Source: Alphaproteobacteria bacterium | GTDB taxonomy: Bacteria; Pseudomonadota; Alphaproteobacteria; Rhizobiales; Aestuariivirgaceae | Assembly: GCA_028868695.1 (NCBI GenBank) | Contig: JAGWTZ010000012.1 | Coordinates: forward strand, 1,046 to 65,045 | Direction: 5' to 3' | Length of the DNA stretch: 64,000 nt | Shown here: one piece after another, positions 1,331 through 5,123 of the stretch | Layout: each line of letters starts with the position of its first letter | Numbering within the stretch: the stretch's first letter is position 1 | Made by a program: the position numbers and the translations under genes | The notes under the pieces: model-generated | What the model saw: the letters and a program-made list of their open reading frames with translations, nothing else | The model's database searches: none | Told to the model about the DNA's origin: nothing

Positions 1331-2278
1331 GTGAACTCTGTCCTCACGACAGTCCTTCCCGTTTTTGGCCTCATCGTGCTGGGCTATCTCTTTGCCAAGG
1401 CCAAGGTGATTGATGCTGCCGCTGGGCGCGGGCTGGCGTTATTTGTCTTCAACGTGGCCATTCCCGCCTTCCTGTTCCGCACCATGGCCACGCTCTCATC
1501 CGCCGAAGCCGCACCCTGGGGCCTGTGGGCCGCCTTTTTCGGTGGGCTGGCGATTGCCTGGGTTGTGGCTGCCTTGGTGGCGCGCAGGATTGCCAGCCTT
1601 AAAGTTTCCGGCGGGGCGGCGGCGGCGATGGCCACGGGCTTTGGCAATGTGGGCCTGCTGGGCGGGCCGCTGGCCATGGCGCATTTTGGCGAAGGCGTTG
1701 GCGTGCCACTGGGCCTCATTCTTTCCGTGCACGCGCCCATCCTGTGGACGGCGGCAACCCTTCACCGGGAGATGGCGCGCAATGCAGGCGGCCCCAACTG
1801 GGCTTCAGTGGGGCGGGAACTGCTCAAGAACCTCGGCACCAATGCCATTGTGCTGGCGCTGATTGCGGGTGCGCTGTGGCGGGTGACGGGGCTTGGCCTG
1901 CACCCCATTCCCGACAAGACGCTGGCCATGCTGGGCGACGCATCGGTGCCCACGGCACTCTTTGCGCTGGGTGTTTCGCTTTCCGCCTATTCGCTCAAAG
2001 GTGCCTGGGACGGGATGTTCGCGCTCATTGGCCTCAAGATGTTTCTGGTGCCGCTGCTGGTTTATGTGCTGAGCCATTTCGTGTTTCAGGTTCCGGCCTT
2101 CTGGGCGCGCATTGCCGTGCTGTTCGCCGCAATGCCCACGGGGGCCAACGCGTTTTTGTTTGCGCAGAAGAATGATGAGGCTGTACCAGCCGTTTCTGGT
2201 GCGGTGGCACTGGGAACGGGGCTTGCGGCGCTGACAGCATCTGTGCTGCTCTATTTGATTGATACGGGGTGGATGTGA
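1331..2278 (+). CDS. AEC (auxin efflux carrier/malate permease) family transporter
   Basis: About 10 hydrophobic segments; FNVAIPAFLF, GNVGLLGGP and AAMPTGANAF motifs. Confidence 0.88.
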   Translation: MNSVLTTVLPVFGLIVLGYLFAKAKVIDAAAGRGLALFVFNVAIPAFLFRTMATLSSAEAAPWGLWAAFFGGLAIAWVVAALVARRIASLKVSGGAAAAMATGFGNVGLLGGPLAMAHFGEGVGVPLGLILSVHAPILWTAATLHREMARNAGGPNWASVGRELLKNLGTNAIVLALIAGALWRVTGLGLHPIPDKTLAMLGDASVPTALFALGVSLSAYSLKGAWDGMFALIGLKMFLVPLLVYVLSHFVFQVPAFWARIAVLFAAMPTGANAFLFAQKNDEAVPAVSGAVALGTGLAALTASVLLYLIDTGWM

Positions 2279-3447
2279 TGAAGCATTTTGACGTGGTGAT
2301 TGTGGGCGGGGCGATTGTCGGCTCTTCCACGGCCTATTTCCTGCGCAAGAACGGGTTCAAGGGCTCCATCGCGGTGATTGAAAAGGACCCGACCTATGCC
2401 AAGGCCTGCACGCCCTTATCCTGGGGCGGGGTGCGCAAGCAATTTTCAACGCCGGAGAACATCCGGCTTTCAACTTTCGGCTTCAACATCATCAGTGATG
2501 TGAAAAAGGAATTCGGGCCGGAGGCCGACATCAGTTTCCGCGAAACCGGCTATCTGGTTCTGGGCAGCGAGGCTTCTATCCCCGTTCTTGAAGAAAACGC
2601 CAAGCTGCAGCGCTCCATGGGCGCTTTTACCGAGCTCTATTCTCCTGCCGAGCTTGCCCGGAAATTTCCGCATGGCAATTTCGAAGGCATCGCCATGGCC
2701 AGTTTCGCGCCCAAGGGCGAGGGCTGGTTTGACCCTTACGGGCTGATGAACCTGGTGCGCAAGGGCGCGGCCGCCAAGGGCGCAACCTATATCGCCGATG
2801 AGGTGGTGGCCATCGAGGCGGGCGATAAAGTTTCGTCCGTCACGCTCAAGTCCGGCGAGAAGCTGGGGGCAGGTGCGGTGGTGAATGCGGCCGGCACGGC
2901 TGGCGGCGCCGTGGCGGCGATGGTGGGCTTCAACCTCCCTGTCTCTGCCGCCAAGCGTTTCACCTATATCGTGGATTGCCCGGCGGCACCTGATGCACTT
3001 CGCAAGGGGCCGGCCTGGTTCAATACGGACGGCACCTATTGGCGGCCTGAGGGGCGCAATTTCATGTTCGGCTTCACGCCCTCTGAGGATGAAGAGCCCA
3101 AGGTTGCGGATTGGGAGATGGAACATCACTGGTTTGAAGAGAAGATCTGGCCTTCAGCCTTTGAGCGCGTGCCGGTGTTTGAATCGCTCAAGGTGATCAG
3201 CGGCTATGTGGGCCATTATGATTACAACTGGTTTGACCAGAACGGCGTCATCGGCCGGCACCCGGCCATCGAGAATTTCTATTTCGGCAATGGCTTTTCC
3301 GGCCATGGCATCCAGCAAGGGCTTGCCACCGGCAATGCCATTTCCGAGCTGATCATGCATGGCGAATACCGGACGATGGACCTGAAGGCCCTGGGCGTGG
3401 AGCGGATTGCCGCCAACAAGCCGCTTTTTGAAAAGAACATCTTTTAG
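2278..3447 (+). CDS. FAD-dependent oxidoreductase (DAO/sarcosine oxidase beta-like)
   Basis: N-terminal GGAIVG dinucleotide fold; GFSGHGIQQG near C-terminus; TGATG coupling to upstream gene. Confidence 0.88.
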   Translation: MKHFDVVIVGGAIVGSSTAYFLRKNGFKGSIAVIEKDPTYAKACTPLSWGGVRKQFSTPENIRLSTFGFNIISDVKKEFGPEADISFRETGYLVLGSEASIPVLEENAKLQRSMGAFTELYSPAELARKFPHGNFEGIAMASFAPKGEGWFDPYGLMNLVRKGAAAKGATYIADEVVAIEAGDKVSSVTLKSGEKLGAGAVVNAAGTAGGAVAAMVGFNLPVSAAKRFTYIVDCPAAPDALRKGPAWFNTDGTYWRPEGRNFMFGFTPSEDEEPKVADWEMEHHWFEEKIWPSAFERVPVFESLKVISGYVGHYDYNWFDQNGVIGRHPAIENFYFGNGFSGHGIQQGLATGNAISELIMHGEYRTMDLKALGVERIAANKPLFEKNIF

Positions 3448-3530: not shown

Positions 3531-4427
3531 ATGCCTCATCACAACGCCCTGCTGGGCAAGCCAGTTGCAGACGACATTTTTGCCAATGTGCAGGATGGCG
3601 TGAAGGCGCTGCAGGAAAAGGGCTGGAACCCCAAGCTCGTTTCCATCACAATTGGCGATGTGCCGGCGGTGAACCTCTATGTGCGCAACCAGGCGCGCGG
3701 TGCGGCCCGCGCCGGCGTGGGCTTTGAAGAGCGCAACCTGCCGGAAAACATCTCTCGCGTGGAAATGCTGGGCCTGCTGCAGGCGCTGAACACAGACCCG
3801 CGCGTCACCGGCATCATCATCCAGCGGCCCATCCCCAAGCATCTCTCCATCAAGGAGCTTCAGGCGGCGGTGCATCCACTCAAGGATGTGGAGGGCATGC
3901 ACCCGGCCTCCATCGGCAACATCGTCTACAAGGATGTGGCGCTGGCGCCCTGCACGGCGGCGGCCTCGGTGGAATTGCTCAAGCGCACCGGGCTGAAGCT
4001 TGAAGGCCTCAATGTTGTGGTGATCGGGCACTCGGAAATCGTGGGCAAGCCCATCGCCTTTCTCCTTCTGGCAGAGGGTGCCACTGTCACTGTCTGCCAT
4101 CACATGACGCGCAACCTGGCCGTCCACTCACGCGCGGCGGATGCTGTTTTCGTGGCGGTCGGGCGGCCGCGCTTCATCACTGCCAACATGATCAAGCCGG
4201 GGGCCGCCGTGATCGACATCGGCATCAACCAGATCGAGGAAGACGGCAAGACGCTCACCGTTGGCGATGTGGATTTTGGCCCTTGTGCCGAAGTGGCGGG
4301 CTGGATCACGCCGGTGCCCGGCGGGGTGGGGCCAGTGACGGTTTCCATCCTCATGCGCAATGCGCTAGTGGCCGCGCAGACTCAGGCCGAGTTCTACGAA
4401 CGCCAATTTGGCGGCGCGGCGGAATAG
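3531..4427 (+). CDS. folD: FolD-family methylene-THF dehydrogenase/cyclohydrolase with atypical catalytic motifs
   Basis: PCTAAA, IVGKP and ITPVPGGVGPVTVSILM motifs; but YVRNQ, KDVEG and GHS replace the usual YxxxK, KDVDG and GRS. Confidence 0.85.
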   Translation: MPHHNALLGKPVADDIFANVQDGVKALQEKGWNPKLVSITIGDVPAVNLYVRNQARGAARAGVGFEERNLPENISRVEMLGLLQALNTDPRVTGIIIQRPIPKHLSIKELQAAVHPLKDVEGMHPASIGNIVYKDVALAPCTAAASVELLKRTGLKLEGLNVVVIGHSEIVGKPIAFLLLAEGATVTVCHHMTRNLAVHSRAADAVFVAVGRPRFITANMIKPGAAVIDIGINQIEEDGKTLTVGDVDFGPCAEVAGWITPVPGGVGPVTVSILMRNALVAAQTQAEFYERQFGGAAE

Positions 4428-4430
4428 GCA

Positions 4431-5123
4431 GTGGGTGATACGGTCATCGGCGTCGATGGCTGCCGCGCGGGCTGGATTGCCGCCATCTGGCAGGGTAGCC
4501 AGATCCACACCAAGCTATTTCCGCAATTTGCGGAGATCCTGAATCAGGAAGCCGAGGTCATCGCCGTGGATATTCCCATGGGCCTGCCCAATGCCCACGG
4601 GCGGCAGGCGGAACAGTTGGCCCGCAAGGCGCTGAAGGGGCGGGCTTCCAGCATCTTTGCCGTGCCATCGCGCGCCGCTGCCGCAGCCATGGACTATCCG
4701 TCTGCTTGCGCGATCAACCTCCGTCATTCCCATCCGCCCCGCAAACTGTCGAAGCAGGTGTTCCACCTTTTTCCAAAAATCCGCGAGGTTGATGCGGCCT
4801 TGACGCCTGCCTTGCAATCACGCGTTTTTGAAACCCATCCTGAATTGGCCTTTAGTGTGATGAATGGCGGCATTGCCTTGCGCCACAGCAAGAAGACGCA
4901 AGAGGGCGCGCACGAACGCCTTGCTCTTCTGGCGCAGCAGGGCCTGCCACCACTTCATCACTCATCCTTTGATTATTTGCGCAATGATGTGCAGCGCGAT
5001 GATGTGATAGACGCCTCTGCCGCGGCCTGGAGTGCGCGGCGTATTTTTGAAGGCAAAGCCCTGCATTACCCGGAAAGCCAAGAGCGGGACGCGCTGGGTC
5101 TCCTCATGCGCATCCACGCGTAA
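4431..5123 (+). CDS. DUF429 family protein (predicted RNase H-fold nuclease)
   Basis: IGVDGCRAGW, AVDIPMGLP, FETHPEL and DDVIDA motifs. Confidence 0.8.
   Translation: MGDTVIGVDGCRAGWIAAIWQGSQIHTKLFPQFAEILNQEAEVIAVDIPMGLPNAHGRQAEQLARKALKGRASSIFAVPSRAAAAAMDYPSACAINLRHSHPPRKLSKQVFHLFPKIREVDAALTPALQSRVFETHPELAFSVMNGGIALRHSKKTQEGAHERLALLAQQGLPPLHHSSFDYLRNDVQRDDVIDASAAAWSARRIFEGKALHYPESQERDALGLLMRIHA

Follow-up and report, generated by a model that had tools for sequence, protein, structure and literature searches.

What does a FolD-family protein do once the residues that serve cyclohydrolase activity, pterin binding and recognition of the NADP 2'-phosphate have all been replaced? The question is raised by a FolD paralogue encoded on an alphaproteobacterial contig (JAGWTZ010000012.1 of assembly GCA_028868695.1, Aestuariivirgaceae), within what we call the window, the whole stretch of 64,000 nucleotides that was analysed. 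The initial annotation had read YVRNQ, KDVEG and GHSEIVG where YxxxK, KDVDG and GRSxIVG are usual, and all three are present exactly as described. The gene, its motifs and its immediate neighbours are as follows, with residue numbers 50, 54, 98 and 121 being those of Pseudomonas aeruginosa FolD.

2278..3447, plus strand: upstream neighbour, a DAO-family flavoprotein gene, not part of the FolD system
3531..4427, plus strand: Gln54/Glu121-type FolD paralogue gene, 298 aa, both FolD domains
3678..3692, plus strand: Y50-V-R-N-Q54, cyclohydrolase Lys replaced by Gln, Tyr kept
3822..3830, plus strand: Q98-R99-P100, catalytic Gln kept, Leu99 replaced by Arg, fixed in the window's branch
3882..3896, plus strand: K118-D-V-E121-G122, Glu instead of the pterin-binding Asp, a change that goes together with Gln54
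3951..3965, plus strand: C141-T142-A-A-A145, lineage marker: A-x-A instead of P-x-G after the retained Cys and Thr
4026..4046, plus strand: G166-H167-S-E-I-V-G172, nucleotide-binding loop, 2'-phosphate Arg replaced by His
4095..4109, plus strand: C189-H190-H191-M192-T193, His-Met instead of Ser-Lys/Arg or Arg-Phe at the second site for the 2'-phosphate
4383..4409, plus strand: last helix, extended in the window's branch only and bearing conserved Gln285, Tyr289 and Phe293
4431..5123, plus strand: downstream neighbour, a DUF429 gene beginning 3 bases past the folD stop, common only to close kin

Fixed changes thus extend beyond the three motifs first noticed, to L99R beside Gln98, CTP to CTA at 143, and His191-Met192. 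The ATG start of the gene is consistent with the N-termini of its relatives, and both Pfam domains (PF00763 and PF02882) score far above their cut-offs, placing the protein in the FolD (THF_DHG_CYH) fold family. Its AlphaFold model (pLDDT 90) matches solved FolDs along its whole length (Foldseek TM 0.85-0.90). In the clade alignment, whose 201 rows are partly redundant, Gln54 and Glu121 each occur in 200/201 rows and His167, Arg99 and His191 in 201/201, and dN/dS between orthologues is 0.02-0.17. Motifs that are ~99% invariant, together with dN/dS values in this range, rule out a pseudogene, decay or a sequencing artefact; the variant FolD is under purifying selection and its fold is intact. 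GC and GC3 of the gene match those of its neighbours and give no sign of recent foreign origin, and a promoter and terminator scan at the locus returned nothing above chance.

A canonical folD had been predicted to exist elsewhere in the genome, and the search found one. Only one further FolD gene occurs in the genome (3.09 Mb; completeness 99.7%); it lies on contig C54 directly downstream of fhs, and its product is 46% identical to the window's paralogue, with YVANK, KDVDG and GRSNIVG in the same columns and HSK at the second phosphate site. This second gene rules out the window gene as the genome's sole folD. Other carriers likewise hold two FolDs: a second FolD, 34-49% identical to the query, is found in 8/8, 48/50 and 5/5 carriers, and its motifs, read in the window's genome and in the carriers at L061, L073 and L084, are canonical in all.

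Relatives of the variant are encoded by at least 578 stretches in GTDB genomes, and the best 80 of these are from Alphaproteobacteria, plus some Gammaproteobacteria, Deltaproteobacteria and Verrucomicrobia. Carriers in culture include Paracoccus aminovorans, Ponticoccus alexandrii, Dongia soli and Fodinicurvata. Searches of the ESM Atlas matched only FolD clusters and unnamed DAO clusters. A profile search of representatives at 50% identity yielded 141 full-length FolDs, a set that is enriched by the search profile and contains kin that are not independent, so that counts within it are not frequencies. Lys54 is paired with Asp121 in 81 of these and never with Glu121, while a residue other than Lys is paired with Glu121 in 55 (Gln in 51 of them) and with Asp121 in five. 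By this comparison, the residues at 54 and 121 change together with hardly an exception throughout FolD, and the Gln54/Glu121 pair is the mark of a single old lineage. The 55 proteins form one branch (starred in the tree of representatives), and with 12 trait columns dropped and a mixture model applied all of them still lie inside one starred set of 59 rows, the tree being unrooted and its support being SH-aLRT only.

In the long proteins of the lineage, the fusion partner of the variant is MetF, FolB or homocysteine methyltransferase, the last sometimes followed by a MetF-like tail, and the two long canonical FolDs scanned are both fused to formyltransferase. In P0196 and P0270 (~920-940 aa), a homocysteine methyltransferase domain is attached to a FolD of the Gln54/Glu121 type, and P0196, from a Planctomycetota MAG, shows an additional weak MetF-like match in its tail. 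In P0126 (L085:7001-8896), which lies among unrelated housekeeping genes, the variant is joined to the homocysteine methyltransferase domain alone. At L086:2-2538 (P0148), next after metV comes a gene for MetF fused to a FolD that bears the variant signature. P0122 and P0141, a fusion to FolB (dihydroneopterin aldolase) and one to a response-regulator receiver, are single records and possibly artefacts of assembly or gene calling.

The YxxxK lysine has a catalytic role in FolD (PMC3338484, PMC5688156). In E. coli it is essential for cyclohydrolase activity, and the K54N enzyme retains ~19% of its dehydrogenase activity with cyclohydrolase activity nil (PMC5688156). Seven substrate or catalytic residues are listed for the human enzyme (PMC3368264); the window protein keeps four of them, as Tyr50, Gln98, Gly264 and Gly267, and has Gln54, Arg99 and Glu121 in place of human Lys56, Leu101 and Asp125. 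Also kept as in canonical FolD are Thr142, Ser168, Ile170, His190, Asp229, Gly231 and Asp246. Gln98, the partner of the lysine, and the substrate-stacking Tyr50 are present, and the lysine itself and Asp121 are absent. The change from Asp121 to Glu is conservative and is fixed in the clade. Of the substitutions of Asp125 in the human enzyme, D125E is reportedly the only one to be tolerated; in yeast Mtd1, which lacks the catalytic lysine, Glu121 is reportedly essential.

The deep members of the lineage carry this argument further. Among metagenome loci, fchA, which encodes a stand-alone cyclohydrolase (PF04961), lies directly upstream in 7/18 Gln54 loci and near 1/68 Lys54 loci, there ~1.5 kb off (Fisher p 4e-5, overstated by kinship, with many contigs short). 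Complete fhs-fchA-folD-metF strings occur at L097 and L106 and partial ones at L087 and L091, and within the sampled deep strings the variant is the only folD. The methyl branch of acetogens has the same gene order, with FolD as the dehydrogenase and FchA as the cyclohydrolase, and nothing else points as strongly to a lineage that has kept dehydrogenase activity and lost that of the cyclohydrolase. The K54N data and the fchA contexts together make loss of the cyclohydrolase with a kept dehydrogenase the best reading, as the initial annotation had proposed, and we predict from the residues and gene order that the window protein is very probably a methylene-THF dehydrogenase without cyclohydrolase activity.

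Which pyridine nucleotide such a dehydrogenase would use is less clear-cut. The human enzyme binds the NADP 2'-phosphate through Arg173, His196 and Ser197 (PMC3368264), and the corresponding positions in the window protein are His167, His190 and His191. Both basic 2'-phosphate ligands are gone, and neither the NADP-type Arg/His/Ser set nor His-Arg is present; Arg or Lys at 167 or 191 occurs in 70/81 canonical rows versus 10/59 variant rows. The arginine of GRS, which had been taken as a cofactor marker, is not diagnostic alone, since several solved bacterial FolDs read GAS there, some of them with His-Arg at the second site. The H. pylori FolD (PDB 6APE), a Lys54-type enzyme, has GAS and HIL at its phosphate sites and is likewise without a basic 2'-phosphate ligand. 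An acidic, NAD-selecting residue at the end of strand beta-6 (189-193) is absent from the clade alignment. Nor is the loss of basic ligands proof of NAD use, because histidine could still bind phosphate: His167, His191 and Lys134 of the partner subunit could between them still hold it, position 134 being Arg or Lys in 143/203 rows. At slightly better than even odds, the remodelled pocket is predicted to favour NAD, or at least no longer to select NADP.

The same residues lend themselves to a rather unlikely alternative, a monofunctional dehydrogenase that is still NADP-linked and adds capacity or NADPH supply, with the two histidines, Ser168 and the other subunit's Lys134 holding the 2'-phosphate. 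His190 and Ser168 are indeed kept, a basic residue at 134 is common, a partner-subunit lysine of the Leishmania enzyme is placed to reach the phosphate, some lineage members keep GRS and HS, and the acetogen T. kivui has a methylene-THF dehydrogenase specific for NADP. However, the basic ligand at 167 or 191 has been lost in most of the lineage, and an NADP-linked enzyme would be for the most part redundant with the canonical FolD, which carriers retain, even one with a genome of 1.2 Mb.

What surrounds the variant in its carriers suggests where its substrate comes from. The window's genome encodes 10 full-length GcvT-domain genes, two SoxB-type clusters, five MttB matches, MetF, Fhs and an Fdh, which makes a large inflow of methylene-THF probable; FchA and PurU were looked for in this genome and neither was found. 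FchA is present in just 4/50 carrier genomes of the window's branch, the proteobacterial branch being mostly without fchA, and fhs is present in 45/50. Among 251 alphaproteobacterial genomes, fhs occurs in 9/9 carriers against a baseline of 116/251 (46%; p ~0.01, the nine carriers spanning six families). A C1 gene lies within 8 kb at 21/63 loci outside the Aestuariivirga synteny block, compared with a rough background of 6% of random positions in the window's genome, and two thirds of loci, the window locus among them, are without a C1 neighbour.

The C1 neighbours of distant loci include Tdm, soxBDAG, Fdh, MttB and MetF. In Ponticoccus the order is fdh-fhs-folD-variant-tdm; L016, L020 and L021 group tmm, a Tdm-like gene, a TMAO permease, the variant and a SoxG/A/B-type cluster; MttB is near the variant in L065 and L076; and verrucomicrobial loci place it near MetF, an AcsE-like gene and fhs. 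At L049, L055, L060 and L066, all verrucomicrobial, the cluster holds, together with fhs and the variant, genes for a pterin methyltransferase resembling AcsE and for a 538-aa MetF protein, part of which is MetV-like. At L026, L035 and L173, an FdhF-like (formate dehydrogenase alpha-like) gene immediately precedes the variant and is read in the same direction. The variant at L171:9343-10236, from a streamlined alphaproteobacterial genome (G235; 1.2 Mb, 35% GC) that also holds a second FolD and fhs, is convergent with a soxBDAG-type operon and divergent from thyA-folA. The earlier suggestion that the C1 units come from amine demethylases is thus upheld at the level of the clade, for soxBDAG, Tdm and other GcvT-domain enzymes, but is not supported for the flavoprotein upstream of the window gene.

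The variant is not a stand-in for a missing MetF, which is present in every carrier checked. Within the genus, MetF is present with or without the variant, as is MttB in all 36 genomes, so no specific substrate co-occurs with it. A second, partial MTHFR-family match lies beside a sarcosine-oxidase-type cluster in the window's genome (G000:C76:2224-2730), and similar weak matches are found in almost all genus genomes.

In the sea, in fresh water and in soil, many bacteria use the folate pathway to oxidise methyl groups derived from choline, betaine, sarcosine and trimethylamine; demethylases load C1 onto tetrahydrofolate as methylene-THF. We hypothesize that the variant is an accessory, dehydrogenase-only paralogue, leaning towards NAD, that oxidises such methyl-derived C1 units; this is overall the best explanation, with a probability of roughly 0.58. 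The enzyme would pass hydride between methylene-THF and a pyridine nucleotide, releasing methenyl-THF, which would be opened to 10-formyl-THF by the canonical FolD or by spontaneous hydrolysis; Fhs would then release formate, and Fdh would oxidise it to CO2, giving NADH. Methenyl-THF hydrolysis can proceed spontaneously (PMC5688156), and in Ruegeria pomeroyi methyl oxidation requires Fhs (PMC4744692). Methyl oxidation by this pathway is assumed to yield NADH (PMC4744692), yet the FolD of the scheme is of the NADP type, and a FolD running in both directions is still only proposed (PMC4543880). In the aerobe that carries the window, the variant would drain methylene-THF from many folate-linked demethylases, alongside a canonical NADP FolD serving biosynthesis. 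Deep members from anaerobes would run the reaction the other way, between FchA and MetF.

A more radical idea, which we consider quite doubtful, is that the FolD fold of the Gln54/Glu121 lineage has been re-purposed, either as a flavin-free methylene-THF reductase that supplies methyl transfer or as a heterodimer partner that sets both direction and cofactor of the canonical FolD in bacteria burning methylated amines. Taken more broadly, the second of these describes a non-catalytic or regulatory FolD-like protein, a folate binder or heterodimer partner tuning the canonical enzyme. The variant almost never occurs without a second FolD, sits right beside the canonical folD in Ponticoccus, Solirhodobacter and L061, and differs by numerous fixed substitutions at the dimer surface and at catalytic and cofactor positions, all of which a regulatory role would accommodate. 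Such a role is nevertheless very unlikely, as the residues of the dehydrogenase scaffold are conserved as much as in canonical FolD and the variant is the sole folD in the deep strings described above, where a working dehydrogenase is needed.

Other chemistry, such as flavin-free reduction of methylene-THF to methyl-THF or use of another C1 carrier, seems still more improbable. A reductase might be hinted at by the fusions to homocysteine methyltransferase, one of them without a MetF domain (P0126), and the folate pocket has a longer acid at 121 and a new Arg99. Yet MetF adjoins or is fused to the variant, which suggests that the two act in series, and each carrier examined encodes MetF. The initial annotation's different C1 carrier is likewise unsupported: the recognised C1 partners are enzymes of the tetrahydrofolate pathway. 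The match of the model to FolD over its full length also speaks against other chemistry.

The initial annotation had also called the upstream gene sarcosine-oxidase-like and looked to it as a possible source of C1 units. Its product is a DAO-family flavoprotein and not a sarcosine oxidase beta subunit, its SoxB score of 53 bits lying far below the cut-off (529); no soxDAG genes lie beside it in the window, the SoxB-type genes sitting on contigs C81 and C76, and a domain scan found no folate-binding GcvT domain in it. The flavoprotein presumably resembles FOXRED1-type proteins. It belongs to an unnamed, widespread group, with MaoC-like and CitE-like genes nearby in kin. The two genes are on the same strand, 83 bases apart with no clear terminator between them, as might be expected if the variant were the dedicated partner of a flavoprotein that demethylates an amine and passes on C1. 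However, an orthologue of the flavoprotein gene is near the variant in 15/80 loci, all of them close kin in which 834-1565 bases and other genes intervene, and in 0/63 distant loci, and within the genus a close homologue occurs in 32/36 genomes and the variant in six. These distributions largely refute the coupling, hardly credible also for a protein without a GcvT domain, and the direct adjacency in the window looks recent and incidental. The DUF429 gene lies upstream of the variant in kin and downstream in the window, which points to a local rearrangement.

Equally hard to credit is a normal bifunctional FolD in which Arg99 or a histidine, for example, functionally replaces the lysine: databases name clade members bifunctional and Gln98 is kept, but the window protein falls under every curated NCBIfam FolD cut-off listed (best 286.9 bits versus 396), Lys54 is essential in E. 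coli, and the lineage is associated with fchA.

If the accessory, NAD-leaning dehydrogenase that we favour is real, it would explain how one cell separates oxidation from biosynthesis. The Gln54 and Glu121 signature would allow hundreds of genes annotated as bifunctional to be corrected, including those in Wood-Ljungdahl-type operons of uncultured anaerobes, and NAD use, if confirmed, would supply an additional part for the engineering of formate and CO2 assimilation. Monofunctional FolDs are already known; the Gln54/Glu121 lineage and its signature appear undescribed, and the literature searched, with most subscription journals outside the search, held no description of the lineage or of the coupling between the two residues.

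The bifunctional FolDs of E. coli (1B0A), P. aeruginosa (4A5O) and H. pylori (6APE) have the same two domains and fold as the window protein (TM 0.85-0.90), and Tyr50, Gln98 and the glycine motifs are common to both. The window protein differs from them in Lys54Gln, Asp121Glu, Leu99Arg, histidine at both phosphate sites and a longer last helix. Closer in function would be the monofunctional FolD of clostridia and acetogens, reportedly the subject of Aluri et al. in 2016. The clostridial enzymes lost the lysine in another way. In clostridia and acetogens the activities are likewise separated between FolD and FchA (fhs-fchA-folD), and the deep members of the lineage share this gene order, whereas the window's branch is mostly without fchA and leans on a second FolD. 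Yeast Mtd1 (PDB 1EDZ), said by Wagner et al. in 2005 to be an NAD-dependent monofunctional methylene-THF dehydrogenase, supplements a multifunctional NADP enzyme with dehydrogenase activity alone, just as the variant would under the best reading. Mtd1 is far in sequence (profile E 8e-17, against 1e-56 or better for other FolDs) and is therefore a functional parallel rather than a close relative. MtdA and Fch of Methylobacterium extorquens also divide dehydrogenase and cyclohydrolase between separate proteins in an alphaproteobacterial C1 pathway, but MtdA is of a different protein family (E ~0.5 to the variant profile).
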